A stretch of 64,000 nt of DNA from positions 51,458 through 115,457 of IMG/VR virus record IMGVR_UViG_3300017527_000515. The stretch is one strand, 5' to 3'. Shown piece after piece: positions 37,001 to 58,462 of this stretch. Under the pieces are notes generated by a model. It searched no databases. It was given only the letters and a program-made list of their open reading frames with translations, and was not told where the DNA came from. Numbering within the stretch: the first letter of the stretch is position 1; each line of letters starts with the position of its first letter. Source of the stretch: a virus. Both the position numbers and the translations under genes were made by a program.

Positions 37001-40000
37001 CCAAACTCTCCGGTTTGAAAATTAAACCCTCTCTGACCTTGTAGTGCTGTGGTTGTGGATATATCACTATAGAATCTAGCACCTAGATCAAAATCTTTCT
37101 TGAATGCTTTCTCGTCTAAACCTACTATACCGGCAGCGGCTCCTGTTACAAAGGTACTTAAGTTCTCTAATCTGTTTTCTAATTCTGACTGTACTCTACC
37201 AGCAGGGAATATGGCTTCTACCATATCTGCTACTTCGTCAATAGATTTGGTTTCTAACTCGCCGACACCTTCTTTGGCTTTATAATTATAATAGGTAACA
37301 AAAGCTTCTAGAACCCCGTCTACATTCTTCTTTACCTCTACTACACCCTGCTGACCAGCTATACCTGCTCTGGCTGCGGGCTGAGTTAAGAATGTTACTA
37401 TGTCGCCGGTAACTAATTTAGTTCCTTTCTTGGCCTCTTTTTGTATTATACCAGATCCTTCCAATAGCGCCTTAGTAATATCCTTAGCGGCGCCTATAAC
37501 AGCTCTTCTTGTAGGAAATACCTGTTGTAATATAGTAGCCCCTTGCAAGTCTCTACCTTGTATCTCTGGAAGATTTAGAAACTCAGGGAAGTTTATAGTT
37601 GATCTACCACCTGCTGCAGTAGGATCAAACAGTGTAGATGTGCCCTTGGGAGCATTTGGAAATTTAAGTGCTCTCTCTAACTCTCTTTGGGCATTTGCCG
37701 CATTTATAACTGGATCTACTTCCACAGCAAACTGGAAGCCCCTAAGTAGTTCCGGGTCTCCTAGTAATCTAGCTATAGTATCTCTATCTACAGCTGAAGC
37801 TCCTGGAAATTTGAATATACCAGCTAGAGTTTTATTAAAATCCTTAGCTGTACCATCATATATTTTTTTAAGTTTTCCTAAAGCATCTTGTAGAGTAGAT
37901 ATATCTTCATCAAACGCTGTAGACAGTGGATTCTGTGATCTGGCCAACAGAAGATCATTTAACCTGCCGGTTAGCATCTCCATTTGTTTAGCTGGAGAAA
38001 CCTTAACTATATCTTTTAATAAAGGACCGAATCCTGGTACTTCCCCTAAAGCAGTGCCTAATATATTCTTTATCGATTCCCCAAAATCTACCTTAGTTAG
38101 ATCCTGAGTGAATCTCTTCAATACATCTATATCAGTCTTGGCCAGTTCCAAAGCGCTGGCTCTTTGTAGGTTAGCTATATATTCTTTATAGTCGCCAGAT
38201 AGTTTAAGTATAGCGTTACCTTGTTTATCATAACTCAACACTAGCTCATTATTTACCATGGCTAGTTCGTTAGCCCACTTGGTAGCATCTTTTTGTATAT
38301 CACCTAATGCTATTAGAGGATGAGTGTAATTATCTGATGCTTTTCTAACCTCTTTTAACTTAGGATCTGCCTCTACCGCGTTAACTTCTTTTACTTTCTT
38401 TTGTAATCTATCATATTGTCTAGATAGGGTAGTTAAATTCTTAATTTGATCTTCTTGTACTCTTCTGGAATTATATACAGACTGTGCATAATCCTGAGCA
38501 GTCATTCCTGTTTCTTGTATTCTACTTGCGAGTTCCTTGAAAGCCGGAATTAATGCTCCTACTGTTATAGCCATAGGAGTTATAGCCTTAAGCAATCCTG
38601 GATCAGTATCACCTATAAATTTAGCAAACTGAGCACCAGCTTCTCCGAAGTACTTACCGAATAATTCAAATGCTCTGCCTGAATTTTTAGCTACCTCCTC
38701 CATCACATTTATTACAGCTATAGTAAGATCGTCTTTCCATCCAGGTATCTTAGTAGCAAGTAGTTGTCCTACATCAGTGAATAAATCAGTGCGCTCGGCC
38801 CATTTCTTAACTTCGTCACCTAGCCCTTCTATTGTTTTACCCATCTCCTCGGCAGAAGTTCCTCCGGCAGCTGCCCATGTGTTAAACGCCATACCAGCTT
38901 CTTTGATTACGTATGTTAATTTTCCAAAACCAGAATGTAGATCATCTAAACCAGCAGCCTTTAGAGCATCCGGGACGCCTTTAGCAAAAGACTTTATACC
39001 TTCTAACTGAGGTCCTCCTTTGCCTCCGAAAATCTCAAAGGCAGATATGTCGAACTCTTTAGATACAGATCTAACAAAAGCGTCTATTACTCCTTTACCC
39101 TTACCAAATACTTCCACTAACTTATCAAATATATCCACTCCCTTAGCAGCATAACCAAAGAATAATGTAAGCGCTGCACCGGCAGCTTTAACCGGGGTAG
39201 GTATAGCGGACATGAATTCGAATACGGTCTTAAGAGCTTTAAGTCCACCCTTGAACACTGGGAATATAAACTTACCAAGCTCCATCTTCAGCTCAGTAGC
39301 AGCTGCTCTGGTTTGCTCTAACTGTTTAGCGTACGTTTTCATAATCTCAACGTTACGTCTTTCAGCCGAGCCCTTAGAGTTAGTACTGTCCTCTATGGCG
39401 TCCAGTACCTCATCCCAATTATCCATAGCAACCAACAGTGCGTTATACTGTCGGGTGCCACCTAGAGATTGTGCTACATTAAGTTTTTGGGCATTAGTAA
39501 GCATAGCCCACTGTTTGGACAGATCAGATAAAATATCAAAACCACGTCTATTCTCGCCGGTTGCTGTTATAGTAGGAATACCTATTTCTCCAAGAGCCTT
39601 AGGACCCTTTTCCGAGAATAAACGACGGGCAATGAATCTCATCGCCGTACCGACTTCCTTACCAGACTGTCTGGTTACAGAACCGATACCAGCCACAATA
39701 CCATTTAACTCATTGAATGTGAAACCAGCATTCTTGGCTGCTGCAGCAGACTTCTTGATAGCGTTGGCCATATCAGCAGCGGTAATAGCGTGTCTGGCCT
39801 CAGTTTCACTCCAAGCGTCTAGTGCCATATCCGCTGATCCCATCTCAGTTCCGAATGATTTCATGGCAGCAGTTAGTGCCTCTGTAGCTTCTGAGGCTGA
39901 CAGTGTAGAAACGTTAGCTGCTAGAGTAGAAACTCTTGTTCTTTCTATAACTTCTGATTGTTTTAAACCTTGTTGTGCAAAGATCTTCATACCACGAAGA

Positions 40001-43000
40001 ACTTCATTTATACTAACTCCGTATTCTTTTGCGAACATTACAGCAGACTGAGTTAGAGCATCAAAGTCAGCTTCTAGTGGGTTCATAACCATACGAAGCT
40101 GTGCTATACTAACTTCTATGTCAGCCAATTCACCTACTGAATCCTTAAGTTGTTGTACCCCACCATATACTAAGGTAGCTGCAGCTCCCCACATAATAAC
40201 ACGTCTGGCAGCAGATCTAAATGTTCCGCCTGCCATGTGCATCTTATCTATAAGGTCTGTAGTTCTATGGGTGTAATTCTCAACTTTACCAGCTGTATCA
40301 TCAGTGGTCTCGCCGAACTTTTTAAAGTCGTGTCTGAAATTTCTTAGAACATTGCCAGCAGAGTCTGTCACCTTCTCAAAATAACTAAAGGATTCTCCCA
40401 CTCTGGGACCAGTTCCTGGTGTGTCTGACTCAGGACCAGGCCTTTCGGCAAATTGTTTAAATTTCTCTATATTTCTTCTATGTAATGCTTGCTGTTGGTT
40501 AGGAGGTAAGAAAGTAGGAACCTTAACAGCGCCAGTCTCATACTCTCCGAAGGCTCCGCGCTGTAACCTACCTAGGTCTATCTTTCCGTATACCTGCTCT
40601 ATTTGTTTTAGATATTGTAGTAGAGATCTAACCTGAAATTTCTTCTCTACGTCTGTCTGGAATTCGTCTGATAAATTAAACCTAGAATACTGAGATAATG
40701 CTTCTCTTAGTACCCTAGCCCTCTTAGCTACCTTTTCAAAATCCCATGCCTCTGTAGCATCTCTCCCCTTTCTCTCGAAAAGATCTACATCCATCAGCAC
40801 TCTCTTGGCAGCTTCATCCACGTCAGCTAGTTCATCTACTAGCTTTCTAATCTCTTCGGCCGGGGCCCCTAAGCCTCCAGCTTCAAGTTTATCTATTAAG
40901 TTTTTATATATACCCCTGGTGCGCTCGTCGCCCTCACCAAAAGGTTGTTTGGTTTTTTTATACAGATCTTCCGGTGTCTGGAATACCCCAGCCTGTTTAG
41001 CTAGATCTGGTAGTAAGAATCTTCTGTCTTTGGTATATATGTCTGTAGTTTTACCTAGACTCTTAACTATAAACTCACGTGATTTCTCCACTCTCTTTCT
41101 GAAGTCAGAAAACTCTCTTGTAGCAGGGCCCTGAGCGTTTGCTACATCGAATACCTCTTCTGCCTGTTTGGCCTGGAAAATAAGAAAATCACCCATAGAT
41201 ATACGCCAAAGCTGCCACGCCTTCATAGATTCTTGGAAGGTTATGTAGTCTCCTTCTACTAACTCAGTCAGTAATTTAGAGAACTGTGGGCCTGTGGGTG
41301 GAGCTTCCCCTGCTCCGCCAGAGAGAGCAGATTTAATATCAGTGTGCATCTTCTCTATGTTTTCATTAAAATTTAGATCACTTAAACCAGACTGTATGGC
41401 TATAGACCCCTGATGTAGCTCTGAGATAGCAGCTAGCTGATCTTTAAGAGGATCAGGAAATTTCTTTACCTTATCTTTACCTAAAGTTCTTTCTTCTGGA
41501 GTACCGCCAGTAATCTTTTCTCCGAACGTAGCTCTACCGTATTCAGGATCTTCCTTCATAGCCTGGCCAATATCTTTAGCTCTATTCTCGGCCGCTTTAA
41601 AGTTAGCTCTGGTTTCTTTGTACACCCCTTCTTTGCCTTCCATGAACTCAAAGGCTTTCCTAGAAAGTTGTACGTACTCCTCTATGAATTCATCTGATTG
41701 CTCAGTAACTCCATAGATCTTATCTAACTCTTGTTCTAATAGGTAAGATTTTAGATTTCTAGCTTTGGAGAATGCCGGAGATTTACCACTAACTCTCTTA
41801 CGTAGTTTACTAACGAGGTCTTGGTGTTCCTCTGGTACATCTTCTATACTGGTAGATAAATCTAGTACATAGTTATTTACTAGTTCTCTAGCTGTCTTCA
41901 GTGTCTCTAGATCTGACTTCAGTCTTTCTGGGTCGAAGCCGAATGTTACTGATTTAGCGGGTGTGGTTAGACCAGCATCTTCAGAAGGTATAAAGTCTAT
42001 AGATGCTTGGACTCCTGGAGCAGCCTGTCCTGACTGCACAAGAGCGCCTAGATATACATTAAGCTGAGATCTATAGTCCTCTAGCTTCTGTCTAATATGT
42101 TCTGGTATTTCTTTATCTAATATATCTGCTAGGGCTATGGTACCTTCTGGTCCTATGGCTCTAGATATACTTTCAAATTTAGCGAAGGTCTCACCGGTAG
42201 TTTTAATATCAGATATTTTTTCTACCTGACCTTGTGCGTTTTTATAGGCTACATCAATGAAGCCAGTGATGGGACCTCTGACTCCCTCAACAAACTCTTT
42301 AGGCTTCAGGTATACAAATTTTTCTATCTCTACCTCTCCACCTCTACCAGCAGCCTCAGCCTCATCCTTAATTTTCTTCTGCATTTTTGCATGGAGAGCT
42401 GTACCAATATCGAATGCTGATTGTACATAATCACTCTTTAGCTCTTCTGCATCAAGTCCTAACAACTGTCCTGTGATGGCTTCTAGTTGAGACCCCTGAC
42501 GGTTGCCCTTTATCAGTTCTCCTAAGTCTGCGCCGCCACCTTTAAACTTACTAGCAGTAAATACATTATTCAGATTTGTAAAAAATTGTTTTTTAAGTTG
42601 ATTATATTCTTGTTCTAAATTAACATCAGCTCCCCTAGGACCTACTTCTACTCCTGGGAAGTATTTCTTCTGTAATTTATCGAACTCAGGTTTACCTATG
42701 TTCTCAGAGTGTCTATCAAAATCACTTGATATTTTTTTATAATCTTTTAGCTGTGATTGTAGGCTTCTTATCGAAGCTTCGCCATGCTGATCGTGTTGAT
42801 CTCTAATCTCCGACAGTGCTGATTTTGTTTGTTGCTGTGGGGCAAAGTCAGGATTAAGCTGGTCGGTATAATCTCTTCTGGCGCCAGTACCACCGCCGCC
42901 GCCAAAGAACACTCCCACACCTTGGGCTACACTGTGTATATGTACTGGAACTACTCCTCCAGTCATAGGGAATTGTCCGCCGACACCGCCTCCACCAAAT

Positions 43001-46000
43001 ATAGTACCAGAACCTCCCGGACCGTGTATGCCCTTAGCTTCTTCTCTCATAGCCTGGCCCTGGATAGCAGCGGCCTGCATGTCCTGGGAGAATTTATAGC
43101 TTCTAGCACTTTGTCCAGTGGCCTTAGGTCTGGAAAGATCACTGGCTTCTGGAAATAACGATAGAGTTGTTATACCTTCCTTGGCTCTAGTAGATAAGAC
43201 ATCTAATATCCTATCCATTTCGTAAACTATTTCAGCTTTGGCTGCCAGCTCCTGGGCATAACTCTCAGCTGCTACTTCTACTTCTTCTTTATTAAAATCT
43301 GGATCTTTAGAAAGTAGCTTTTCTCCATGCTTTCTAAAATCCTTCAATAGCTTCTCAGAAACATCTATCTTCTCTTCCCTAGTCAACGTGGGAACTCCCA
43401 CAAGATCAGCCAGTTTTTCTATCTCTTTAATCTGATCTTCTGGAGCCTTTTTTAATATATCTCTAGTAAGACTAGGTAATTCTTCCTCTAGTAGAACTCT
43501 GCTTTTTAGAGCATCTAGACTTCTGTCGACTTTGGTTATATCAAATCCTTCAGCTTGAAGCTTCTTAAACTCATCGTCTATTAGTAATTGGTCTCTATGG
43601 ATATTATCCAGAGTACTCTTGACTAATTGAGAATAAGCTCCAGCATCTAAACCTTCAGCAGCTTCAGCTATAGCGTCTTGTATGTTTCTAGCAGTAGCCT
43701 TGGCTTGTTTATATTTCTTTAATAATTCCTCTTGCTCTTTAGGTTTCTTTCTTAAGAATTGTACACCTTGAGGCACAGTAGGTTCCCCATACCTCTCCGT
43801 GAATCTCTTTTCTTGTCCCTTAAGATTAGATTCCTGACGTGTTATATATAATGGTAGATTAGGAACTGTGATATGTTCACGTACATTGATACCACCTGCT
43901 GCTATTTCTTCTTGTATAAGATTTTTAGCATAAGATTTAGGATCTCCTATCTGCGCACGCTTATCTGGGGATAGCTTTTCTATATTCCTTAGAATACCTT
44001 CCATGGCGCCTTCTCTTACCTGGTCTGCCATTTCGCGGAAGAATGATTCTAAACCAGTAGCCTTGACTGCCATGTCAATCAGCTCGTCTCTATCAGCTCT
44101 GCTCAAATCGAAGGAGCTATACTCAGTACCTCTAGCTTCATAAAGTTGCTCTAGTTCTTTTCGTATAGTAGAGGTATCCATCTTACCAAGTCTTAGCTTG
44201 GTAGACTTATTAACTGCCGCTTCAAAGTCTGCTATCTCACCCTCTGGGAGTAAGGAAGCCCATAGTTCAGTTACCCCATCATACCCTTGTGCTATACGGC
44301 TTTGTATTTCACCGGCTATGGTAGACCCACCAGCATGCTTAACATCCATACCCTTCTGGATGGCAAACCTAAATACCTCATTAAATTTGGTATAAAAGTC
44401 TCTGGCTATCTCATCCTGGCTGCCGCCTAATATTCCTAGATTAGGATTACGGCCAGAGAAGCCCTCACTGGGTTTAAATTCAGCCCCTCCAGTACCTAAC
44501 AGACCAGAACCGAATCCAACACTAGATTCTGCTAATCTATTAAGTCTGTACAGAGCTTCTGTTTCAATACCTGTATGAATCTTAAATAATTGGGCCTCTA
44601 CCGCATCCCTGTATTTAGATTCGAAAAGCCTGCTTCTGACTGCTGCCTGGATCTCATCTACAAAAGTGGTACCCATAGCAGTGTCTAACTCTTCTATAGC
44701 TTTATATATATCCTCAACAAAGCTTACTCTTTTTTCTATACCGCCTTGTTGTTTAACCGCCTTAAGCTCACTAGCTACATCGCCGAATGGAGATTCTACA
44801 TCTCCTACCTGTTTTAGTAGTACGTCTCTGCTGGAACTAGATAGTATAGTATCCTGTATTATACCTTTTAGTACCTCATTAATGCCTTCTACACCTGTAC
44901 CACCTAGACCTAAAATACTCAACTGCTCACTAGGAGTAGCATACTCTAATGTAGGAGTCTTTAGGGCAGCTGTGGGATCATCTGGATCTATAGATGCCTG
45001 ACCAGTTAGAAACGGTTTGACTAAGAAATCAAACCCCTTCTCTTTAGGGAATTTCTTATAAAAAGACTCAGCCATTTCTGACAAGATGGCATCACCTGTA
45101 GGTTGTTGGGAACCAAGCGCATCAGCAGTGAATATATCTCTATATACAGATTGTAGGCTATCGTTGAACTCAGCTACACTCTTATGATGTTTGGCTATCT
45201 CCTCTCTAGCTTCTGCAGTTCTAGCAGTATGTACAGCTATTTCATCACCATCGAAGTCCAACTTGGCGGTATGAGCAGCGTACTTTGGAGTAACCTCTGA
45301 CACGGCCCTGGCCAGTTTGTCCATCAAAGCAGATAATTCATCTACTCTGGTTTGATCCACCGGCATATCGTTAGCGTCTGCTTGTCTAAATAACTGCTCA
45401 CGCTGTTCATGTAGACCTTCGATTATCCCTTTAACCGGAGCTATTATATCGTTTAGTTCATCTAGATTTAAGTCTGGCGCGCCTGGAACCACAAACGCAT
45501 TCTTAGCTCTTTCTCCCTGCGTACCAGATAGTAGTTCTGCCTCGTAAGGAACAATAGAAGATACTCCAGTAAATGGATAACGGATAGCCTCCACAAAAGT
45601 TTTAGTTCTTTCTAACTCTTGTGCAGCCAGTTCGGAAAGAGGACCATCATCACCTACCAAATCCTCTAGTCGTTCTCTATAACTTAGTATATCATATAAC
45701 GTACCGTCTATCTTACTAGTCTGAGCACGCGGTCCTTTCTTGCCAAATTGAATCTTCTGCTCAAACTCAGATATAGGCAATTTTTTAGCGGTAACTTCTG
45801 GTATACCTAATTGGTGCTGCCTTAGTACTGGGAATCCAGCCTTACGTTGTTTGGCTATTCTTTTGCCGTGCTTTGTCGAAACAGATTGTATATCATTTAT
45901 AACATCAGCCAGCGTATTGGCCGCATCATCTGGTAGTTCTGATGAAACAGAAGCTAAAGCTTTTTGGAAGTCCGTAAATTCCTGTGTCCTATCCACTATA

Positions 46001-49000
46001 GCATTAGTGGCTTTCTTCATTACAGCTGGGAACTTACGTGAGAATACAGCTGTACCTATAGCACCTTCTTTACCTACCGCGGCCTCAGCCAAACCGTGGA
46101 AATAATCTATCTTGGCTTTCTGTAGGTTATCAAGTGCCTGTTCGTATTTAAATTGTAACTCTGCGTCTACATCAATACCTAATTTAGCTGCTAGTTCTAG
46201 GCCTTGACCCTTCTGTACATCAGCAGCTAAGCGATACAGTTTCTTCTCAGTGACTGCCATCTCGTTAGCCATGAGTTTGTGCTTATCTTGAAGTGCCGCT
46301 AGTAGATCATTAGGGTCATCAGTAGCTCTACTCTTGAATCTGGAGTCACTCTCTAATACTTTCTTGAACATAGCTATGTTGTCAAACTCACCTTGTTGTA
46401 TTTCAGCTATGCCTTTTACTACAGTATTATATGTCTCTTGTGCTGACGGTCCTTTACCTATTAATAAGTCAGATGCTCTACCTATAGCTGTAGCTAAGGC
46501 AGCCTGCTCTGATTTAGTGCCTAATTGTTTTTGTAGAAATTGCTGTACGTTCTCGAACTCTGTTGGCCCTCTTCTTACTTCTTCGCCGTCTATTATCCTA
46601 GCCGGAGCCTCAGTCTTAGATAGAGCGTTAGTTAGAGTATCAAATATCTTTCTGAGATCAGCCGGTGCTTCTGGAGACTTTGAGTATCTAAGATTTTGAG
46701 CCTGTTTCAACATCTCCGCTACTTCTTCGAACACTCTTTTCTGTACAGTAGTAGCCAACTCACCCTTACCGGTTAGTAGATCGCTTTGGGCTGACTGTCT
46801 AGACAGAAGCTCTGCTTGCTTTTCTGCTGCTCTAGGATCTCCAACTCGGAGCATCTCGTTGAGCTCCATCTCCAGTTTTTCTATGTCAGCTTGTAGAGTG
46901 GCCGGTCTATCTAATAACTCTTTGGCCTTCTTGGCCATATTAACCACGTGCTGTAGTCTACGACCTATATTTTCTACACCTCGCTCTCCGCCTATCAGTT
47001 CCTCTGCGTAAGTACCTCTTGCTAAAGCTCCTGGTACATAGAAAGGCTCGCTCTCTCCAGCCTGACCACCTACCTTAGGTATGTCAAGGAAGAAAGGTTT
47101 GGAGAATTTCTTAGTATCAAATATAGTATCTTTAAGGGTACGCGGATCTGTTTCATCAGCTTTTTCGCTAAGAATACCAGTAGTTTGGTCAAAGTACTTA
47201 ACGGAGCTCAGGGTTACCTTATCAAGAACATTTATCTGTCTTTGTTGTAGCGTACCTGTCTCATCAGCCATGAACTGTAGGGCCTTTAAGAACTCCAATT
47301 GTTTTCTCTGATTGGCGTTGGTAGAGCTCGTGATTTCATCAATTAAAGCAGACTGCTCTCCGAATACAGTAGAGTACGCTGACAATACTGGTATATCCAC
47401 ACTGGCGCCCTTTATACCTCTACGCACATCTTCTTTGCGCCACGGCTCGGTTTCCCCCGTCTCCTGTACAATAGATAGGAACTTAGTACCTACTATACTC
47501 TTACGTCTCTCACCAAATTCATCTATAACAGTGGAATAGTAATTAGACATAGCCTCTAGAGCTTTAGCTCGTTCAGCTATGATCATTTCCATCTGGCGTT
47601 TTTCTTCTTCTGTGTCTCCTGAGGCTTTAGATTTAGCTAGGGCAGCGGCTAATTGTTTTATCTTATCAGTATCACCGACGGTTTCAAAACCTAAAGCGCT
47701 TGATACCTGGCTAAGCTCACCTGCCTTACCGCCACCACCTAATAATCTCTCGTACTGATTTTGGGAGAATTTGGTAGGTAGTGTAGTGAATCCCCGTTCA
47801 CCAACGTCTGTTATGTTACCAAGTACTGCCTCTAGAACTTCAGGCTGTAGACCACGTTTACCTATACCGACTGAACTTATTCTAACATCGATGGCTTTTT
47901 CTTTTACTAATGCCCCACCTATCTCATCTGTAAATAATTTCTTTATTTGTTTGATTCCAGTTACATCATCTGCTAAGCCGGTCTCGCCGCCTGCCAGCTG
48001 TCTACCTGTAATTGCCTGGAATGCTTCGGCTGCTTTCTTGAAAACTCCAGCCTGTTGTGCCTGCTCTTCTGGTACTACTATAGCAGTTTTAGCGTCTCTA
48101 AATAGGTCCAGTATGAATTTATTACCAGACGCTGTTAGCATTTTCTTCAGTATAGCTACATCAAAACCCTCTGATGTCAGCTTCTTTTCATACTTATCTA
48201 CTACCTCTGCCAGAAGCTCTCCCATGCTCCTAGGCAACACTGCCACACCTAGGCCAGCCTTCTGTCTCTCCTCATCAGTAAGGACCTTGACTTTAGCTTT
48301 TGGGAATGCCTGTAGAATTTTACCTATCTCAGTAGCTTCGCCTTCTTCTAACCCTCCAGGAGAAACACTTACCCCCTTAGATCCGTATCGGGATGTGAAC
48401 TTTCTACCGAAGGAGTTTAGGAATACCTCTGTCAATCTGGCTTGCTGTACCTCTACCTCCTCACCGCGGACTACAGTAATAGCACGTTGAATCTCATCTA
48501 TGAAAGCCTGGTCGGCTCTACCTTTATATTGTTCTGGTACACCGAGCACCTCTTGGATTTTGTCCAACACAACTGCAATATCTTTATCTTTTATTGGTCC
48601 TGCTTGTAGATCACTAACCCCAGGCGCAGTTTCCAACCCACCACGGATTCTACCTCCGGGGGCTGGTCTTACTAATGTTTTAGTTATAGTAGTCAGCGCT
48701 TTAGCCAAATTACCAGACACTAGAATCTGATCTTCCATTGTACCGGCAGTATGGCGTAGTTCTGTAAGAACATTAAAACCATAACCCTTTGTGCCTAATC
48801 GTCCTGCAGATATCAGTTCGGATTCCCTCTCAGATCTTAGAGCTGGAAATTCAGTCCCTATACCTTCAAGAGTTGTGGCTTTAAATTCCTTTGCTAGTCT
48901 GTCTAACTCTGTCTTGGATGAGGATATAGCATTGGTAACACCAGCTATATTCCTACCAGTCTGAGTAAATTGAGCTCCGAACGGAGCAAGTTCAGGAAGG

Positions 49001-52000
49001 ATGTCGGTGTACATTTTGGTAGAAAAGGCATCCAATGCACCTAGATATTTGGTACCTTTGTCAGTCTGGCCAGGTCTGTAAAACTCTCCTTTACCAGCAA
49101 GTGCTTCTGGTATGCCTAAGGAAGATACAGTACGTACACCCTCTTTTAAAAGTTGTTGATTAGTTATGTAAGAATCTCTTACTATCTCGTTTAATCTAAC
49201 ATTAAGATTCTTTATGAACTCCTTCTGGGCTGCAGGATCTAGATCTCTACGGCCTTCATCAGCGTAAACATCTGATGTTCTTGTTAGAAGGTTTAATACG
49301 TTTTCTTGCTGCAAACCACGACGTGGGCGGCCAGGCTCTATTAAAGGTAGAGACTGTACCACTTGGTTGATTGCGTTCTCATACTCACGGATGGCTTTGT
49401 CGAATTGGGGCTTAGAACCTAATCCTTTTAGGGGCTCTACCCCAGTTTTTTCGCTGCCTTTTAGAACTCTCTGGATAACATCATAGATATTTTCGAACTC
49501 TATTTTGTCCATAGACTTCACAATATCATATGCTGATAGCCCTGCTGCTCTAAGGGCATCTAACAACTTATTTACATCTCTGTCTACTTCATTAGCCTTT
49601 AAGGCTTTCTCCATGTCAGCTATTAATCTAGATCCGCCCCTACTCTTACTTCCTCCTAATTGGACGGCGCTTACATAAGCTGCACTAGGAATCTGCTCTC
49701 TCAATGCTTGTAGGTTTGCCTCGTTAGCGCGGGCATAGTCCTCCAACATCTGGCGAGCCAGATCTCTAGCCTTGTCTAATTTTAATCCAGCAGGCTTAAC
49801 ACCAACTTCTCTAATCTGAGCAGCAAAATTCTTTTCATATACTAAAGCTTGTTGTTCTTGTAGCTTCTCATATATCTGCTCAAAACCAGTCTTAAACGTA
49901 CCAAACTTCTGCAGTGCTCTCTGACTACCTCTAGCAGTTTCAAAGGCAGGCGCACCTGTTTTAGTCAGCCTAGCTGCCGGTAGACTTACAGTTCTCACTA
50001 GCTTTTCTTCTTTTAATGTTCTAGCAGCTTCAGTTCTACCGACAGTAGCTTTGAATACTTGCTCTAGTGTGGCTCTGTCTTGCCCCAGAACCTTGTTTAA
50101 TTGTTTTACTATGTCAGCACTAGGCAACACACCTTTGATATCGGTTTGTTTAATGTTTACCAGATCGCCTTGAAATCTCTCTATTTCTTTAATCTGTTTG
50201 ATCTGATCTGCAGTGACGCCCTTTAACCATTCAGCTATTTTGCCAGTAAGGTTGGCGGGGGAAGGGAAATTAGCTGCTAGTTCGGTAGCTAACACATCAG
50301 TTAGTTCTTTAACCATGGACTCGGGGCTGCCTTTGGTGGCTGCACCGCGGCCCTTAACGAATAACTGTCTCTTGATTGCCTCGACATTAGCTATCTGGAA
50401 AGCGTGTTGTTTGCCAGCTTCTTTTACATTAGCGCCTGAAACAACCTTGAAGAAATCCTGTACGCTCTTCTCAGAACCGTCTCTTACGATCGACCAACGA
50501 TCGCCTGCTTTTTTAAACTCGGAATTTAATGTAGTAACTATATAGTCTTGTAGATCTACTAATGAAGATGATAGATCATTAATACGTTGTTGTATAAGTT
50601 GTTTATGTTTCTCTTGTGCCTTAGACGAGAAAGTCCCTTCGAATTCTAAGTTGATTCCTTTTTTAGTAGCTGGTAAGGCAGCATCTGGGTATGCACTTAC
50701 AGATGCTGGTCCTCTTAGCCTTGAGTTTAACAAGTCTATTTGTTTAATTAAAGGACTTAGATCCTTAGAACCTTGCCCAGGCAGAGCTGGGGCAGGCCTC
50801 GGAGCAGGTTGTCTGGTTGCCTTCTCAAAAGATTCTGCGGCTTTAGTCAGCTTCTTTGAGGCTTCTGTTGCTTCTTTAAGACCGGCCTCAAATGCTTTAT
50901 CAGTTTCTTGTGGAGATTTGTTTATTTTCTTCTGTACTTCATTAACTAAAACTCTTAGCTGGTCTAATTTCTTTGTGTTTTCACCAGCTATACCTCTGCC
51001 TGCAGCCTCTTTAATAGGAGTAGGCTTCATCTCTCTTAATACTTTTACTAATATATCTTGCTCTGAGGTGATCGTAGCTAGATCTTTTTTGTCTCTGGTC
51101 CCAGATGCAACTTCTTTGGTGACCTTTGCTACTTCAGCCTGGCTCTCTCTGATTACCTGCTTGATGAGTTTACTTATCTCACCGAAATAATTCTTTATAT
51201 CTTTAGCTGGAAGATCGGGTAGATTAGACTTACCACCTGACGGGGTCGCAGCCTTAGAACTCTGATCTAATTTCTTAGTTAAACTATCAGTACTCTTGAC
51301 CACCTGTTTCATGGTGTTATCAAGTTGTTTTATTTCTTTAGGAGCACCTAGTTGTTTGGCTCCAGAAGGTTTATATTCCAGCTCTACTTGTTTAGATATA
51401 CGTTCGAACTTAGTTAGGAAGTCGTCAAAGACTTTCTTGAACTTATCAGAGTCCAATATTTTCCCTGGTACATCTTTTACAGATCTAAATTTCTCTGCCA
51501 TCTTCTGCTTGGTGTCTCTAACAGCATCACCAAGGTCTCTCATTATACTTTCTTGTTCTTTGGTGAGAGTCTTAACAGATTTCTTTAAATCCTTATAATC
51601 CTGGGACAGTTCCTTGGCTTCTTTTCTAAGGTCAATAAGAGACTTTATTACCTTGGGAATCTCTGTGACGTCTATTCCACCATCAGATTTCTTAAGCTTA
51701 GCTATGGCCTCCACTGCTTTGGTGGTAGCGTCTGCACTTCTTTGAATTGATTTGTAGGTTTTGGTAGCCTCTTGTATCGACTTGCCGAGTTCAGTGGATA
51801 CACTAGATCTAATGGAATCACCAATAGCCTTGGAAATAATTTTTGAACCTTCGGGGCCCAGTTCTACACCAGTTTGTCTTGATAGGGATGTATTAAGTTT
51901 ACCTATAGCAGCAGCAACTTGCTTATCTACATTACGTAAAGCAGCCTCCACACTCTTAGTGTGTTCAGGACCACTGCGCTGACCACGTTTAGACATCTCC

Positions 52001-52323
52001 CTAAGGATAGAGTTCGCCGTATCCAGGGAGACATTCTTGACTATTCTCTCTAGGTCACCTTTATTTATAGGTTTTTCAGATGGTTTGCCTGCTGGTCCGC
52101 CAGTCTGTTGGTTTCTTAAGACTCTACGTAGACTGATCTCTAGTTGTTTACTGAGTTCATTAGACAGAGTCTTATTGGCGTCTTTGGACACCTTGTCCAT
52201 GACTTTTCCAATCTCACCTGCTAATTTCTTCTCATCTACTCCAGCAGACTTCGAAGGTCTGCCAACACTTTTTTGGGCTCCTCTGCCCTCAAAAATGTTG
52301 TGATTGATGGTGTACTCGGCCAA
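28078..52323 (-). CDS. Giant tape-measure polyprotein (8081 aa): two-barrel RNA polymerase, PD-(D/E)XK nuclease, TP901-type TMP core and C-terminal cassettes
   Basis: TTG start with GGGAGGTG RBS; canonical TMP position after the tube and chaperone genes; domain motifs are listed in the sub-features. Confidence 0.9.
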   Translation of the reverse strand: MAEYTINHNIFEGRGAQKSVGRPSKSAGVDEKKLAGEIGKVMDKVSKDANKTLSNELSKQLEISLRRVLRNQQTGGPAGKPSEKPINKGDLERIVKNVSLDTANSILREMSKRGQRSGPEHTKSVEAALRNVDKQVAAAIGKLNTSLSRQTGVELGPEGSKIISKAIGDSIRSSVSTELGKSIQEATKTYKSIQRSADATTKAVEAIAKLKKSDGGIDVTEIPKVIKSLIDLRKEAKELSQDYKDLKKSVKTLTKEQESIMRDLGDAVRDTKQKMAEKFRSVKDVPGKILDSDKFKKVFDDFLTKFERISKQVELEYKPSGAKQLGAPKEIKQLDNTMKQVVKSTDSLTKKLDQSSKAATPSGGKSNLPDLPAKDIKNYFGEISKLIKQVIRESQAEVAKVTKEVASGTRDKKDLATITSEQDILVKVLREMKPTPIKEAAGRGIAGENTKKLDQLRVLVNEVQKKINKSPQETDKAFEAGLKEATEASKKLTKAAESFEKATRQPAPRPAPALPGQGSKDLSPLIKQIDLLNSRLRGPASVSAYPDAALPATKKGINLEFEGTFSSKAQEKHKQLIQQRINDLSSSLVDLQDYIVTTLNSEFKKAGDRWSIVRDGSEKSVQDFFKVVSGANVKEAGKQHAFQIANVEAIKRQLFVKGRGAATKGSPESMVKELTDVLATELAANFPSPANLTGKIAEWLKGVTADQIKQIKEIERFQGDLVNIKQTDIKGVLPSADIVKQLNKVLGQDRATLEQVFKATVGRTEAARTLKEEKLVRTVSLPAARLTKTGAPAFETARGSQRALQKFGTFKTGFEQIYEKLQEQQALVYEKNFAAQIREVGVKPAGLKLDKARDLARQMLEDYARANEANLQALREQIPSAAYVSAVQLGGSKSRGGSRLIADMEKALKANEVDRDVNKLLDALRAAGLSAYDIVKSMDKIEFENIYDVIQRVLKGSEKTGVEPLKGLGSKPQFDKAIREYENAINQVVQSLPLIEPGRPRRGLQQENVLNLLTRTSDVYADEGRRDLDPAAQKEFIKNLNVRLNEIVRDSYITNQQLLKEGVRTVSSLGIPEALAGKGEFYRPGQTDKGTKYLGALDAFSTKMYTDILPELAPFGAQFTQTGRNIAGVTNAISSSKTELDRLAKEFKATTLEGIGTEFPALRSERESELISAGRLGTKGYGFNVLTELRHTAGTMEDQILVSGNLAKALTTITKTLVRPAPGGRIRGGLETAPGVSDLQAGPIKDKDIAVVLDKIQEVLGVPEQYKGRADQAFIDEIQRAITVVRGEEVEVQQARLTEVFLNSFGRKFTSRYGSKGVSVSPGGLEEGEATEIGKILQAFPKAKVKVLTDEERQKAGLGVAVLPRSMGELLAEVVDKYEKKLTSEGFDVAILKKMLTASGNKFILDLFRDAKTAIVVPEEQAQQAGVFKKAAEAFQAITGRQLAGGETGLADDVTGIKQIKKLFTDEIGGALVKEKAIDVRISSVGIGKRGLQPEVLEAVLGNITDVGERGFTTLPTKFSQNQYERLLGGGGKAGELSQVSSALGFETVGDTDKIKQLAAALAKSKASGDTEEEKRQMEMIIAERAKALEAMSNYYSTVIDEFGERRKSIVGTKFLSIVQETGETEPWRKEDVRRGIKGASVDIPVLSAYSTVFGEQSALIDEITSSTNANQRKQLEFLKALQFMADETGTLQQRQINVLDKVTLSSVKYFDQTTGILSEKADETDPRTLKDTIFDTKKFSKPFFLDIPKVGGQAGESEPFYVPGALARGTYAEELIGGERGVENIGRRLQHVVNMAKKAKELLDRPATLQADIEKLEMELNEMLRVGDPRAAEKQAELLSRQSAQSDLLTGKGELATTVQKRVFEEVAEMLKQAQNLRYSKSPEAPADLRKIFDTLTNALSKTEAPARIIDGEEVRRGPTEFENVQQFLQKQLGTKSEQAALATAIGRASDLLIGKGPSAQETYNTVVKGIAEIQQGEFDNIAMFKKVLESDSRFKSRATDDPNDLLAALQDKHKLMANEMAVTEKKLYRLAADVQKGQGLELAAKLGIDVDAELQFKYEQALDNLQKAKIDYFHGLAEAAVGKEGAIGTAVFSRKFPAVMKKATNAIVDRTQEFTDFQKALASVSSELPDDAANTLADVINDIQSVSTKHGKRIAKQRKAGFPVLRQHQLGIPEVTAKKLPISEFEQKIQFGKKGPRAQTSKIDGTLYDILSYRERLEDLVGDDGPLSELAAQELERTKTFVEAIRYPFTGVSSIVPYEAELLSGTQGERAKNAFVVPGAPDLNLDELNDIIAPVKGIIEGLHEQREQLFRQADANDMPVDQTRVDELSALMDKLARAVSEVTPKYAAHTAKLDFDGDEIAVHTARTAEAREEIAKHHKSVAEFNDSLQSVYRDIFTADALGSQQPTGDAILSEMAESFYKKFPKEKGFDFLVKPFLTGQASIDPDDPTAALKTPTLEYATPSEQLSILGLGGTGVEGINEVLKGIIQDTILSSSSRDVLLKQVGDVESPFGDVASELKAVKQQGGIEKRVSFVEDIYKAIEELDTAMGTTFVDEIQAAVRSRLFESKYRDAVEAQLFKIHTGIETEALYRLNRLAESSVGFGSGLLGTGGAEFKPSEGFSGRNPNLGILGGSQDEIARDFYTKFNEVFRFAIQKGMDVKHAGGSTIAGEIQSRIAQGYDGVTELWASLLPEGEIADFEAAVNKSTKLRLGKMDTSTIRKELEQLYEARGTEYSSFDLSRADRDELIDMAVKATGLESFFREMADQVREGAMEGILRNIEKLSPDKRAQIGDPKSYAKNLIQEEIAAGGINVREHITVPNLPLYITRQESNLKGQEKRFTERYGEPTVPQGVQFLRKKPKEQEELLKKYKQAKATARNIQDAIAEAAEGLDAGAYSQLVKSTLDNIHRDQLLIDDEFKKLQAEGFDITKVDRSLDALKSRVLLEEELPSLTRDILKKAPEDQIKEIEKLADLVGVPTLTREEKIDVSEKLLKDFRKHGEKLLSKDPDFNKEEVEVAAESYAQELAAKAEIVYEMDRILDVLSTRAKEGITTLSLFPEASDLSRPKATGQSARSYKFSQDMQAAAIQGQAMREEAKGIHGPGGSGTIFGGGGVGGQFPMTGGVVPVHIHSVAQGVGVFFGGGGGTGARRDYTDQLNPDFAPQQQTKSALSEIRDQHDQHGEASIRSLQSQLKDYKKISSDFDRHSENIGKPEFDKLQKKYFPGVEVGPRGADVNLEQEYNQLKKQFFTNLNNVFTASKFKGGGADLGELIKGNRQGSQLEAITGQLLGLDAEELKSDYVQSAFDIGTALHAKMQKKIKDEAEAAGRGGEVEIEKFVYLKPKEFVEGVRGPITGFIDVAYKNAQGQVEKISDIKTTGETFAKFESISRAIGPEGTIALADILDKEIPEHIRQKLEDYRSQLNVYLGALVQSGQAAPGVQASIDFIPSEDAGLTTPAKSVTFGFDPERLKSDLETLKTARELVNNYVLDLSTSIEDVPEEHQDLVSKLRKRVSGKSPAFSKARNLKSYLLEQELDKIYGVTEQSDEFIEEYVQLSRKAFEFMEGKEGVYKETRANFKAAENRAKDIGQAMKEDPEYGRATFGEKITGGTPEERTLGKDKVKKFPDPLKDQLAAISELHQGSIAIQSGLSDLNFNENIEKMHTDIKSALSGGAGEAPPTGPQFSKLLTELVEGDYITFQESMKAWQLWRISMGDFLIFQAKQAEEVFDVANAQGPATREFSDFRKRVEKSREFIVKSLGKTTDIYTKDRRFLLPDLAKQAGVFQTPEDLYKKTKQPFGEGDERTRGIYKNLIDKLEAGGLGAPAEEIRKLVDELADVDEAAKRVLMDVDLFERKGRDATEAWDFEKVAKRARVLREALSQYSRFNLSDEFQTDVEKKFQVRSLLQYLKQIEQVYGKIDLGRLQRGAFGEYETGAVKVPTFLPPNQQQALHRRNIEKFKQFAERPGPESDTPGTGPRVGESFSYFEKVTDSAGNVLRNFRHDFKKFGETTDDTAGKVENYTHRTTDLIDKMHMAGGTFRSAARRVIMWGAAATLVYGGVQQLKDSVGELADIEVSIAQLRMVMNPLEADFDALTQSAVMFAKEYGVSINEVLRGMKIFAQQGLKQSEVIERTRVSTLAANVSTLSASEATEALTAAMKSFGTEMGSADMALDAWSETEARHAITAADMANAIKKSAAAAKNAGFTFNELNGIVAGIGSVTRQSGKEVGTAMRFIARRLFSEKGPKALGEIGIPTITATGENRRGFDILSDLSKQWAMLTNAQKLNVAQSLGGTRQYNALLVAMDNWDEVLDAIEDSTNSKGSAERRNVEIMKTYAKQLEQTRAAATELKMELGKFIFPVFKGGLKALKTVFEFMSAIPTPVKAAGAALTLFFGYAAKGVDIFDKLVEVFGKGKGVIDAFVRSVSKEFDISAFEIFGGKGGPQLEGIKSFAKGVPDALKAAGLDDLHSGFGKLTYVIKEAGMAFNTWAAAGGTSAEEMGKTIEGLGDEVKKWAERTDLFTDVGQLLATKIPGWKDDLTIAVINVMEEVAKNSGRAFELFGKYFGEAGAQFAKFIGDTDPGLLKAITPMAITVGALIPAFKELASRIQETGMTAQDYAQSVYNSRRVQEDQIKNLTTLSRQYDRLQKKVKEVNAVEADPKLKEVRKASDNYTHPLIALGDIQKDATKWANELAMVNNELVLSYDKQGNAILKLSGDYKEYIANLQRASALELAKTDIDVLKRFTQDLTKVDFGESIKNILGTALGEVPGFGPLLKDIVKVSPAKQMEMLTGRLNDLLLARSQNPLSTAFDEDISTLQDALGKLKKIYDGTAKDFNKTLAGIFKFPGASAVDRDTIARLLGDPELLRGFQFAVEVDPVINAANAQRELERALKFPNAPKGTSTLFDPTAAGGRSTINFPEFLNLPEIQGRDLQGATILQQVFPTRRAVIGAAKDITKALLEGSGIIQKEAKKGTKLVTGDIVTFLTQPAARAGIAGQQGVVEVKKNVDGVLEAFVTYYNYKAKEGVGELETKSIDEVADMVEAIFPAGRVQSELENRLENLSTFVTGAAAGIVGLDEKAFKKDFDLGARFYSDISTTTALQGQRGFNFQTGEFGEVTNLQKQWASDTRKYFLEPMEKYNKSVRRFDKAGSLEKTSDASEEVYQELLAQQAVLKNNQVVVQYAAVFADLSKTIEQGTRVLAENIAIEEARQESVKVTSGLLAGLPEGLDNIDTGVRSVQDLTVKQLALLNQPQYQGAAQNFRSADVRRQALIQRREELARAKVAIETITATQQGIGTVIGPDATPEEIKGFIEKSTVLGDVVGATLSKDINNLTKSNVTALDPIATSLEELVSLGQTNQVLTDKIIGLQERVAEFDSRPEDEQGGAEARRISLLIAHEIHKAAGAREGASPRERAVLEERINVLVDTMNKFTTFGRGQAAVGLSPSRLLPGAGLSREEYLQRSFRGLQSNELTERFKTDAGPRTKLGLRGFTALPGVGGPIPIPKLKSIPGFAESDELKQLVAIQEAEKKLSEKTFFNSKNLLKVSAAVAAFQSFSKSNSSAALAVMNEQLVGQKAALLEAKKAGDEGRIATGQSEVAALEKAIAAEQKSLDFNTIVASLANLETGTIALARAFGISETNVKRIGGASLVLYAAMQAASKITGEELPESAKEFGKELGKTLKEVGESGDVSIGTLKDLGSAGKEFKGDFENRVKEITGTTREGIREAFKARLTGLQDLPEAEIEKRAAVLRDEASKGGAGGLKKILAAALASTLAGTFAELTGPGVRKADIERLSEQRGELLDKIASEWPQVAELIITELLDQSKRAQEDLKKPLDSEAQKQALDVFYNAQQALDALAQTTGGVNSEIAALTREMEGNADTMHRLELFEGIRKQVQDFVRDLANQAVQLEVARKYSLGAFLNRDTRGFAGDAQLPLERSGMSTQQRIFASADEDLRGFMTAFKSTQDIITRTEQEIVRLEQLRQKYQEDGVYNQLSALEGMDSEIAGIKSERDELISKQQRSVDEGKMRIHQQLMEAEKKLAEAEKRRAEYAKSAAGENANAAKELDKTIESTKKYADSLANAMNPAVVAAYNGTVLLGEAMFKLNDALTEVSVQDAIDELASIKEFRAKTDKFLGGSGADALQLVDPATRLEAARGGINLKEFDTRRNVEEAEILRAMQQQGQTSELLQRYLSLDSKYEGEARAKEQQKQDERFKRQTDPVLTLMTDLERITRNNNVSPELKATAKAIQEQAGAFLKAAPDEIINAEGKKERRGITVEQIDELTSKFEGLKNSLKEQYGKEFQKMGLASNQELMIDHLSSIAESTRGSKEGLTSVAGYMEQMISKLGDPLEVKVVDSAIKKAAGGAIFGPGGPKDDNIMAMLSSGEFVINQASAAKLGRKNLEYINKYGKLPGLQGGGFAYESEALKYLRSYTPAEQSFVGPQMPDHIAAARQRQAETQKIISLIDSKIKAVQTARENIIGLNKKDIEEGRTPQGVTELIELNKKLLQLQEYKNQLEEAAAERANAHEETRLRLIEENKTGFNKVDQSINVQTEKTAAGQGEIKQSIDAQTGVLTDQTSVLNNIDGGIKALLDVIKSKAPDINRQAFVDKGYDQHEAERLRRIQKVPYTDPKFNVKSIDSRTEHEKRTGRAQGGKVFGEGGPKEDKVPAMLSPGEYVIKAASASKLGMSALEYMNKEGQLPPGMANGGFPDKLVSSREYDETNPLYVGPSGRKMRSAYGAPVSTITGKPFMTKAEYDEIYRPPTKDELKSFGKLATSTVLDASPIVGDVKSAQEAITGIDVITDEKLGPLSRGLAGLAVLPFVPGSIKHLGKSGKALKSLDTAVDLSGSVGKATNKADLAKNIDILNEEFKLARSNHPVAGLMTNPNLKVSTKAKEGQKLTTTFKEGQDIVSSSRGLAKASDLASRRKVVAGGFEHEIGGHVTESAVKKFLKDPSLIGKHIDDPEIAKTLTKERLQKMKDFMDSFIAQPPVSKYAERFTGDASKFGRENFAEFVKLVKAGEIKSPLVEEYTKLFTGFAEGGIMGQIGDWLKTAKEFYFGREVEATEEELAEMAEDARSFSYLTSKDTKKNILDAVDPHNNKGGGGMMKRKHFAEGGMAGRIKDWLKTTKDFFFGRDVEVSEEDLARGAESGRATSYLTSKETKKNILDAAGDIDSKGMGGMIKKYGDGGKIKPFVPKTEPVRSKEEKEKLKQQLDALKQRHEKKRKIGEFLRNIGAGKLLSDDMKNDIYHKYGIALSEPAEFRGMGGRMKRKHYAEGGIIGQIGEWLKTAKEFYFGREVEATEEELAEMGSDARTFSYLTSKDTKTNILDAIDKKGMGGRMKRKKYAEGGLARRFTEINGEIVELDENGNIVGGLPDDAMTTARRDQGTFANNKAYRVNTGIVDPDPSFGAGQPTARFAELTVQEESKRLAALNEQAFAEKALVGKHTYEEQLAAAKASGNVDVYNQIQAEHAKTIQRENRQALKRDKEVYDALREPGILPAPKGKGLFNYTFDSKTGIVSAEGLSHGVQSKYDLNELAYKERKEAMARGQLPLPTVGPGYEATPGANPGKKLQDTRAKVARAQLVAGISRKAMQGEVDPQAPDRNVLENLYGTAGIGRDTQLAYEYYNKLRYLSENDPNFNRQDELKSLEAMVMSGNVDMNKIKPLMKDIKLTKNFHDVRKKVDENKYGIKDPRLAFLASPHLFKEYVRLKEAGDEVGAAAAKAMLEKAAINAEDIANQFGMAKDAATVDSLAMLYGRFGKGKLEPAELRAVRDQIKIAGQGRKQDFEKETRGFSAREKLGRMFEAMKQGFYEVPKQFYKDTFSSNKSRPVMHNGGVVAQTGTVFAQKGETILPKGFQAGGMVDDNLTRASLTSTTVKIDGSEVASQIADQVKSAIESSEVKVEADAKVRVDTTDAKVPVDLEGAVVKVDTDSAVVRVDTADVTVPVDAAGVASEISNAISQALANATVDVNPSANGSVGADSLDSISNAVVDVQDKLITVKGELEERMVNLESKALTANNVKPEIQSAVSEAMNQVTHDINTNRNNISEITSRVTRFEGRMQYEVGEARRYAQDAQNFATRPGVG
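30310..31233 (-). repeat. Three imperfect ~65-aa repeats inside the TMP C-terminal region
   Basis: (F/Y)AEGG..G.I.(D/E)WLKT.K(E/D)F.FGR(E/D)VE..EE(E/D)LA......R..SYLTSK(D/E)TK.NILDA at about 31010-31233, 30810-31008 and 30310-30522; also visible at DNA level. Confidence 0.9.
31290..31560 (-). other. Zincin-like metallopeptidase module (within TMP)
   Basis: FEHEIGGH (31519-31536), then VSKYA and ENFAE, the HExx(x)H...SxYA...ExFAE pattern of phage and toxin zincins. Confidence 0.55.
31860..32010 (-). other. Pre-toxin-TG-like segment (within TMP)
   Basis: VLDASPIVGDVKSAQEAITGIDVITDEKLGPLSRGLAGLAVLPFVPG matches the PT-TG consensus (DxxPxxGxxKxxxEAxTGxDxxTGEKL..xxR). Confidence 0.7.
39150..40215 (-). 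other. TP901-family tape-measure core domain (aa ~4035-4390)
   Basis: AQLRMVM...FAKEYGVSINEV..GMKIFAQQG...STLAANVSTLSASEATEALTAAMKSF...AITAADMANAIKKS...VTRQSGKEVGTAMRFI..R...LSDLSKQW..LTNAQKLNVAQSLGGTRQYNALL. Confidence 0.9.
41880..42420 (-). other. PD-(D/E)XK (RecB/Cas4-like) nuclease domain (aa ~3300-3480)
   Basis: GTALH (H ~3311), EVEIE, GFIDV, SDIKT (D ~3372) and YRSQLNVY give the complete RecB-family motif series. Confidence 0.8.
44300..48800 (-). other. Single-chain two-barrel RNA polymerase (beta-like then beta'-like), aa ~1180-2680 of the TMP
   Basis: MEDQILVS (M1196), GRKFTSRYGSKGV (48370-48408), IDVRISSVGIGKRG..EVLE (D1479), IVGTKFL (G1612), GKEGAIGTAVFSRK (G2084), IRYP (R2248), DFDGDEIAVH (DFDGD at 45244-45258, D2356). 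Confidence 0.88.
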
Positions 52324-54172: not shown

Positions 54173-54196
54173 TGTATAATCCTCCGTGTCCTTATA

Positions 54197-54445
54197 TTAT
54201 TGTCTCTGGACTCTAATAACGTCTTCAGAGACAGCCTGGTATTCCACTTTATATTGATCATCCATTTTACGATGGATGTTTCTGATACAATTGTTTCCAA
54301 CCCTAAGAATCTTGGATCTTAGAGGTCTAAAGTGGGGTTCGGGACAGGCAACCTGTGCAAAATCCAGCGCCTGTTCAAACATGAATGTAACCTCTTCCTT
54401 TATCAGATCCTTGAGTTTCTGCATATGTTTATCCTCTACTGCCAT
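54197..54445 (-). CDS. Hypothetical protein (82 aa)
   Basis: GGAGG and AGGA upstream of the ATG; in operon orientation. Confidence 0.7.
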   Translation of the reverse strand: MAVEDKHMQKLKDLIKEEVTFMFEQALDFAQVACPEPHFRPLRSKILRVGNNCIRNIHRKMDDQYKVEYQAVSEDVIRVQRQ

Positions 54446-54461
54446 GTCCTATAATCCTCCT

Positions 54462-54499: not shown

Positions 54500-54512
54500 T
54501 CCTGTGTTCCTA

Positions 54513-58446: not shown

Positions 58447-58462
58447 ATTGGATTATCCTCTA

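Follow-up and report, generated by a model that had tools for sequence, protein, structure and literature searches.

The locus analyzed here raises the question of why a polymerase motif should stand inside a giant viral tail protein. The DNA is a stretch of 64,000 nucleotides (the window), positions 51,458 to 115,457 of the IMG/VR record IMGVR_UViG_3300017527_000515, in which one open reading frame (ORF) of 8081 codons on the minus strand holds the sequence DFDGD. It is probable that amino acids (aa) ~980-2850 of this ORF form a virion two-barrel RNA polymerase fused to a tail tape measure protein, and that the stretch around DFDGD, which had been flagged from the letters alone, is its beta-prime-like catalytic half with the Mg-binding Asp triad. 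To our knowledge, a virion RNA polymerase fused to a tape measure protein has been documented experimentally only in one small group of Thermus phages.

The window is the final 64 kb of a 115,457-bp record with a completeness of approximately 40% (CheckV), and all large genes of the record share one strand. The giant ORF is a single open frame; it starts with TTG, with GGGAGG 7 bases upstream, and its N-terminus fits the family consensus M-x4-I-N-I-N. The C-terminal half of the chain, from aa ~4030, belongs to the tail tape measure proteins of the TP901 type. PhageMin_Tail (PF10145) was matched at aa 4096-4289 (E 7.3e-24; 85.2 bits, above the cut-off of 33.2), PHROGs tape measure families matched the C-terminal 4081 aa (best E 3.6e-74), and 99% of the core could be aligned with tape measure proteins of Bacillus siphophages, at 28-31% identity. 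The tape measure locus encodes the polymerase-like module and the tape measure as a single chain, and the source is probably an uncultured giant phage, long-tailed and non-contractile.

28078..52323, minus strand: giant ORF, 8081 aa (translation)
43774..49398, minus strand: putative single-chain two-barrel RNA polymerase module, ~aa 976-2850 (colinear hhalign blocks, fold matches)
39124..40236, minus strand: tape measure core, aa 4030-4400 (Pfam, PHROGs, identity to siphophage proteins)

Beta-prime-like half

The sequence-only reading had likened three peptides of this region to the beta-prime motifs GK-x-G, R-x-P, and DFDGD followed by His, and had placed three catalytic Asp at 45244-45258. 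In the translation, every peptide that it quoted was recovered where it had been placed, on the minus strand and inside the 8081-aa ORF, and the three Asp proved to be D2356, D2358, and D2360, exactly at those positions. DFDGD is the only D-x-D-x-D sequence in the whole protein. The peptides below were located by translation, whereas the two helical elements were taken from a structural model.

45184..46116, minus strand: beta-prime-like barrel DPBB-A, aa 2070-2380 (motifs GK-x-G, R-Y-P, DFDGD)
46030-46077, minus strand: GK-x-G peptide VGKEGAIGTAVFSRKF, aa 2083-2098
45574-45594, minus strand: R-x-P peptide VEAIRYP, aa 2244-2250
45244-45258, minus strand: DFDGD, within the Asp-loop peptide AKLDFDGDEIAVH, aa 2353-2365
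aa 2368-2375, minus strand: RTAEAREE
44518..44664, minus strand: bridge-helix candidate, a 49-residue helix, aa 2554-2602 (model; K2581 and G2585 invariant)
44290..44418, minus strand: trigger-loop candidate, a helix-loop-helix, aa 2636-2678 (model; Q-K-G-M-D-V-K-H-A-G, with H2663)
44335-44361, minus strand: IQKGMDVKH, aa 2655-2663

A search with aa 1900-2900 against 5.8 billion proteins returned 27 homologs of 5023-7930 aa, 28-58% identical to the query and encoded on contigs of up to 318 kb. All of them carried the PF10145 tape measure domain. Conservation of DFDGD in homologs was a point on which the sequence-only reading had staked its case, and all 27 kept D[F/Y/H]DGD at the corresponding position; the pattern R-K-x-x-x-R-[YF]-G-x-K-G was present approximately 1000 residues upstream in 23 of the 27 and in the present protein. 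In a full-length alignment of 26 sequences with a mean column identity of 26%, aa 2070-2440 formed one cluster of invariant columns, comprising G2084, F2094, E2245, R2248, P2250, T2252, and G2253 in the GK-x-G and R-x-P regions and L2355, D2356, D2358, G2359, D2360, H2365, and R2373 around the Asp loop. The three motifs that had been assigned to beta-prime all lie on such columns. D2356, D2358, G2359, and D2360 were invariant throughout alignments of 26-30 sequences that were 26-35% identical overall. Even the replacement of NA by KL before DFDGD, which had been remarked upon earlier, is itself conserved (K2354 in at least 90% of sequences, L2355 invariant). Because the motifs are conserved across homologs, a chance motif was ruled out.

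The comparison of a predicted structure with Rpb1, which had been proposed as a check, agreed with the assignment. An AlphaFold2 model of aa 2030-2900 was built from a 30-sequence alignment, with a mean predicted local distance difference test (pLDDT) score of 79.2 and a predicted template modelling (pTM) score of 0.68. In this model, a helical-bundle insertion sits within DPBB-A, and a strand (332-336) directly follows the Asp loop, H2365 being invariant. The fold aligned with E. coli beta-prime from approximately residue 280 to 1351, and the top matches, to beta-prime/Rpb1, spanned the whole catalytic core. The best 50 Foldseek matches in the PDB were all largest subunits of RNA polymerases, at weak E-values of 5e-3 to 5e-2. 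In BFVD, RNA polymerase subunits of giant viruses and poxviruses ranked on top (E 6.7e-4), and a segment of the 'structural protein' of Cellulophaga phage phi14:2 ranked fifth. The scores are middling, but as the matches are exclusive and the alignments long, a beta-prime-like fold is the only reasonable reading of the modelled aa 2030-2900. When the single E. coli beta-prime sequence was set against the family using hhalign, the DFDGD motif alone was aligned, in the right place and with a probability of 6.7%.

Downstream of the barrel, the 49-residue helix and the helix-loop-helix approximately 60 residues after it look like a bridge helix and a trigger loop in the model. The low-confidence tip of the latter carries Q-K-G-M-D-V-K-H-A-G-G. 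Invariant columns of aa 2580-2665 are K2581, G2585, Q2656, G2658, D2660, V2661, K2662, and G2665, and the trigger-loop-like His, H2663, is conserved in at least 90% of sequences. The spacing from DFDGD to the motif is +300 here, against +320 to the bridge-helix motif in E. coli beta-prime. No bridge-helix register was obtained on aligning aa 2549-2749 with E. coli beta-prime residues 650-1000 using hhalign. The trigger loop of cellular enzymes (RpoC/Rpb1) has F-H-x-G-G. Owing to its position, the helix-loop-helix shape, and the likeness of K-H-A-G-G to F-H-x-G-G, IQKGMDVKH more likely belongs to the trigger-loop/bridge region, probably as the trigger-loop His motif, than to the D-x-x-K element for which it had been taken.

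Beta-like half and a second polymerase

The beta-like half spans aa ~980-1810, and the following elements were located in it and in the connector behind it.

48121..48873, minus strand: beta-like barrel block, aa 1151-1401 (invariants, hhalign)
48727-48735, minus strand: EDQ, aa 1197-1199, in the beta-like block
48370-48408, minus strand: K motif GRKFTSRYGSKGV, aa 1306-1318 (K1308 and K1316 invariant)
46900..47904, minus strand: beta C-terminal-like block, aa 1474-1808 (hhalign 91%, E 1e-6, 253-283 columns)
46039..47268, minus strand: stretch joining the two barrels, aa ~1686-2095 (clamp-like fold signal)

In the 26-sequence alignment, the invariant columns of aa 1160-1800 include E1197, D1198, K1308, and K1316, and G1317 of the K motif (G-x-K-x7-K-G) is invariant too. 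The block of aa 1474-1808 opens with I-D-V-R-I-S-S-x-G-x-x-K-R-G-L-Q-x-E, comparable to D-I-V-L-N-P-L-G-V-P-S-R-M-N-I-G-Q of beta. As in cellular beta (E. coli RpoB; Pfam Rpb2_6), the motifs E-D-x, G-x-K-x5-R-x-G-x-K-G, and D-I/V-x-x-N/S...G...R/K...G-Q/L-x-x-E follow one another, and then, as in cellular beta-prime (RpoC; Rpb1_2), G-K-x-G, R-x-P-T, and DFDGD-x-x-x-V-H come in order.

Besides the giant ORF, three related near-complete genomes (G001, G002, and G004) encode a further single-chain polymerase ORF of 1088-1180 aa, whose DFDGD lies at ~812-877. Its first half matched Pfam Rpb2_6, and its second half matched Rpb1_2.

L050:1715-5041, minus strand: second two-barrel RNA polymerase of G001 (genome of 268,764 bp, 100% complete)
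L051:995-4534, plus strand: second two-barrel RNA polymerase of G002
L052:1326-4589, plus strand: second two-barrel RNA polymerase of G004

When the profile of the giant family was compared with that of the second polymerases using hhalign, the following blocks were aligned, all of them colinear.

Giant aa 976-1174 with second polymerase 138-266: 60%, E 8.6e-5
Giant aa 1151-1401 with second polymerase 243-463: 94.7%, E 6.3e-8
Giant aa 1474-1808 with second polymerase 405-687: 91%, E 1e-6
Giant aa 2352-2382 with second polymerase 802-832: 24%, E 8.4e-4

A local hidden Markov model (HMM) of the giant beta region likewise found three colinear blocks in the second polymerases, and in the reciprocal search, the second-polymerase profile picked out the EDQ block in one of the giant ORFs. 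As the hhalign blocks are colinear with a family that matches both Rpb2_6 and Rpb1_2, the beta-like half is considered homologous to a polymerase. The succession of beta-like and beta-prime-like halves in one chain, as the sequence-only reading had claimed, is thus supported; that reading had passed over the tape measure part and the precedent of gp96 of Thermus phage P23-45. The ~1100-aa ORF is a candidate for a non-virion polymerase and appears to be a paralog of the one fused to the tape measure.

Structural prediction was less informative for this half. A model covering both barrels (aa 1175-2374) was weak, with a pLDDT of 70.4 and a pTM of 0.39, and the Foldseek search with it returned helical-repeat noise, with some beta-prime matches far down the list. 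The fold searches gave no beta/Rpb2 match for the beta-like half. On setting the single E. coli beta sequence against the family using hhalign, the K motif alone was aligned, in the right place and with a probability of 0.3%. The polymerase module as a whole measures ~1900 aa, near the cellular size because of its large insertions.

In IMG/VR, 39 loci of the giant-protein family were found, and when 1.84 billion cluster representatives were searched exhaustively with a profile, 110 proteins were returned; 84 reached E <=1e-30, and ~60 were full-length at 6400-8000 aa. In more than 100 divergent relatives, the catalytic residues of both barrels were invariant. Distant proteins of 4100-5560 aa keep the order of beta-like half, beta-prime-like half, and tape measure core. 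In the 26-sequence alignment, the tape measure core (aa 4040-4400) forms a fourth cluster of invariant columns. The finding also corrects the database annotation of these proteins, which bear the label 'tape measure protein' alone.

Comparison with known polymerases and possible function

The nearest experimental counterpart in architecture is gp96 of P23-45, a tape measure protein of 5002 aa with a two-barrel polymerase at its N-terminus and DFDGD at 779-783 (Chaban et al. 2024, Nat Commun 15:317, PMC10770324). It is present in P23-45 virions in fused form, fragments of 1050-1200 aa extend RNA, and it transcribes pre-early genes in a promoter-specific manner, including the gene of a second, non-virion polymerase, gp64 (PMC10770324). 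Furthermore, gp96 is flat and clamp-less and was argued to fit through the tail channel for that reason, and duplication was proposed as the probable origin of gp96 and gp64 (PMC10770324). Like gp96, the present protein is a single chain in which a putative DFDGD two-barrel polymerase stands N-terminal to the giant tape measure of a long-tailed phage; like gp64, a second compact two-barrel polymerase is encoded separately, here as the ~1100-aa ORF of relatives, and the fused and free polymerases of this lineage look like paralogs, as do gp96 and gp64. The gp96 type also occurs in the phages P74-26, G20c, and TSP4.

The two proteins differ in size (8081 aa against 5002 aa, in genomes of 230-320 kb against 84 kb) and in the polymerase module, which is approximately twice as long here and has big helical insertions. 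The gp96 tape measure has Peptidase_M23 and no PhageMin_Tail, whereas the present one has PhageMin_Tail and a Pre-toxin TG domain (PT-TG). Alignment of the family profile with gp96 residues 1-1200 using hhalign gave a probability of 0.4%, and none of the local HMMs, whether of the beta or beta-prime part, the part downstream of them, or the tape measure, matched gp96 significantly. The fusion is of the same kind as in gp96, but judged by sequence, the protein belongs to a different family.

Compared with the cellular enzyme, the module is one chain and not two, contains large lineage-specific insertions, and has KL for NA before the Asp triad and, in the K motif, Tyr/Phe where the cellular enzyme has His. 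Partners of the alpha, omega, or sigma type were not seen, and an enzyme independent of alpha and sigma, 'self-contained' in the earlier wording, is plausible by analogy. One chain with a beta-like and then a beta-prime-like barrel and D-x-D-G-D is also the arrangement of phi14:2 gp66, Neurospora QDE-1, and YonO of the Bacillus prophage SPbeta. The gp66 protein of phi14:2, a crAss-like phage, is a virion RNA polymerase that is delivered with the virion and lies inside a very large protein.

Several results weigh against the reading as a tape-measure-fused virion polymerase. Since no similarity to gp96 was detectable, the functional analogy with it is one of architecture. In gp96, the polymerase lies at the very N-terminus (DFDGD at 779), whereas here it is internal (aa ~980-2850, DFDGD at 2356), with ~980 aa before it and ~1200 aa after it until the tape measure core, and it apparently keeps the clamp-like region that gp96 lacks. 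In the model, the beta-like barrel is of low confidence, with pLDDT <50 around the K motif. The sole polymerase-type Pfam match in the giant protein, RNA_pol_Rpb1_2 (PF00623) at aa 2354-2377, covers profile positions 138-161, that is, the Asp loop, but scores 15.8 bits, below the curated cut-off of 25.3. When 29 members were scanned singly, it was the only family matched repeatedly (5 of 29), which speaks for the reading; Rpb2_6 (PF00562) was unmatched in all 29, the giant protein included. Because the Pfam scores miss the cut-offs, the giant protein is outside PF00623 and PF00562 as defined, and the relation is at the level of superfamily or fold. When PDB sequences were searched with profiles of the two halves, only coiled-coil noise was returned, and neither a polymerase nor gp96; the N-terminal 4000 aa gave no match to PDB sequences at E up to 1, and PHROGs gave no family for the N-terminal half. 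The second polymerase was found neither in the 115-kb record, which is ~40% complete, nor in G003, an 89%-complete relative.

The delivery and the early-transcription role can be outlined by analogy with gp96. The tail would contain a few copies of the giant protein. During infection, the tape measure would be ejected, its C-terminal part forming an entry channel, and the N-terminal polymerase would reach the cytoplasm at or before the DNA end. There, the enzyme would need neither the polymerase nor a sigma factor of the host to transcribe the first ('pre-early') genes. For relatives, the gene of the ~1100-aa second polymerase is probably among them, and that polymerase would then take over.

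The same protein could instead be a polyprotein, from which the polymerase is cut (for example, at a Gly-rich linker) to be packaged separately in the head or to act only in the producing cell; its delivery would then not be tethered to the tape measure. We regard this as unlikely, although it has some appeal. A Gly-rich, gap-rich, and poorly conserved stretch parts the polymerase from the rest, a nuclease-like block and PT-TG suggest a multi-part cargo, and the lumen of a tail tube seems a tight fit for a ~1900-aa module that includes a clamp-like part. However, neither a protease site nor a protease was identified, and the fusion is kept in the ~60 full-length representatives and in the distant families of 4-5.5 kaa. 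There was no complete stand-alone form among the 110 matches, the short ones of which look like contig-end fragments, and P23-45 virions hold the fused form (PMC10770324).

In another reading, the polymerase is active but serves mainly the entry of the ~290-kb genome by transcription, or replication primers, and not gene expression. Passing a very long genome through a very long tail would pose an entry problem, and the DNA-proximal, N-terminal position in the tape measure would suit a motor at the channel mouth. In phage T7, RNA polymerases pull the genome into the cell by transcription. Nothing separates such a role from early transcription, and both could hold together; gp96, however, shows promoter-specific pre-early transcription (PMC10770324), and a role confined mainly to entry is given a small chance. 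Smaller still is the chance that the domain is an inactive relic, an old polymerase whose only remaining role in the tape measure is structural and whose motifs are kept for folding. Protein-language-model features (ESM Atlas) of both halves were nearest to tape measure proteins and not to polymerases, at 0.85-0.88 and below the 0.9 level, and large helical insertions break up both barrels in the models. In contrast, three Asp, two Lys, and R-x-P are invariant and the trigger-loop-like His is conserved in at least 90% at 26-35% overall identity. A relic is disfavored because relics usually lose exactly these catalytic residues.

Regarding the origin of the virion polymerase fusion, it may tentatively be proposed, with confidence falling somewhat short of an even chance, that it arose independently of the Thermus case by duplication of the phage's compact polymerase, that it marks a widespread lineage of giant long-tailed phages, and that the ~8000-aa ruler of this lineage is a tail-delivered multi-enzyme cargo (clamped polymerase of near-cellular size, nuclease, and toxin-like cassettes). 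If so, tail-delivered transcription would be recurrent and not a Thermus curiosity. The gp96 architecture is now found in a sequence-unrelated and larger family, with ~110 representatives in 1.8 billion proteins and genomes of up to ~320 kb. After 2024, this is unsurprising in principle, but it widens a single case to a large uncultured lineage. If the enzyme is active, host-independent early transcription via the tail would be a recurrent strategy among long-tailed phages, and the family would offer a very divergent new branch for the minimal requirements of two-barrel polymerases. It would also pose the physical question of how an enzyme module of ~200 kDa passes through, or sits atop, the tail tube.

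Further modules, neighbors, and relatives

Two further modules were located in the giant protein.

41884..42336, minus strand: PD-(D/E)xK-nuclease-like block, aa ~3330-3480 (consensus; D3372 invariant)
31828..32016, minus strand: Pre-toxin TG domain (PT-TG), aa ~6770-6832 (Pfam PF14449, E 2.4e-11)

The nuclease-like block follows the polymerase, ahead of the tape measure core, and reads G-T-A-L-H ... D3372 ... D-I-K-T ... S-Q-L-N-x-Y, a pattern like that of PD-(D/E)xK (Cas4/RecB-like) nucleases. It had no Pfam match and was also present in P0084, a relative of 6409 aa (local HMM E 1.8e-13). The Gly-rich, poorly conserved linker is at aa ~3190-3250 (window ~42570-42760, minus strand), with 80% gaps in homologs at aa 3196-3235, and may be a hinge or cleavage region. 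The C-terminal ~1700 aa (aa ~6340-8081; window 28078-33300, minus strand) contain two copies of the motif G-G-P-x-D/E-D-x-x-P/M-A-M-L-S-x-G-E-[FY]-V-I, several near-identical repeats of ~60 aa (A-E-G-G-I-x-G-Q-I-G-x-W-L-K-T-A-K-E-F-Y-F-G-R-E-V-E), and a V-x-V-D-rich tail.

The neighbors of the giant ORF include proteins of 694-1884 aa. For 20 neighbor genes on the same strand (window 1-28067 and 52374-64000), PHROGs gave essentially no match, and the structural module of this lineage is, to judge from its sequences, very far from those of described phages. Tail sheath PF04984 was searched for in five genomes and was not found, which is weakly compatible with a non-contractile tail. A tblastn search with aa 1334-3000 against 50,697 GenBank phage records gave no match; the published survey of two-polymerase viruses relied on GenBank records. 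No paper describing this giant family was found in the literature after 2024, and the 'Moraphage' paper (PMC12619734) proved unrelated to it.

The distant members are L042:2-6064 (IMGVR_UViG_3300039208_000165; an open fragment of 2021 aa), P0096, P0097, P0100, P0107, P0120, P0125, and P0127. Their tape measure core (E ~1e-118 to 1e-128) is far better conserved than the polymerase part. In the L042 ORF, on a 95-kb contig, the motifs are more canonical, for example, K-V-S-T-R-P-G-H-K-G.

Interrupted frames were observed in two relatives. In L036 (IMGVR_UViG_3300009702_000031), two in-frame TAG codons, at L036:4630-4632 and L036:5647-5649, are the sole interruptions of the giant ORF; they align to N1698 and L2064 of the window protein, and the frame continues on either side of them. 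As the interruptions are only in-frame TAG, with no TAA or TGA in frame, this suggests that the phage decodes TAG as an amino acid. The closest-but-one relative, L009 (the same contig as L003, IMGVR_UViG_3300033388_002657), has two frameshifts, near 2200 and 5560. One of them falls between the beta-like and beta-prime-like halves; this could be an assembly error or a real break.

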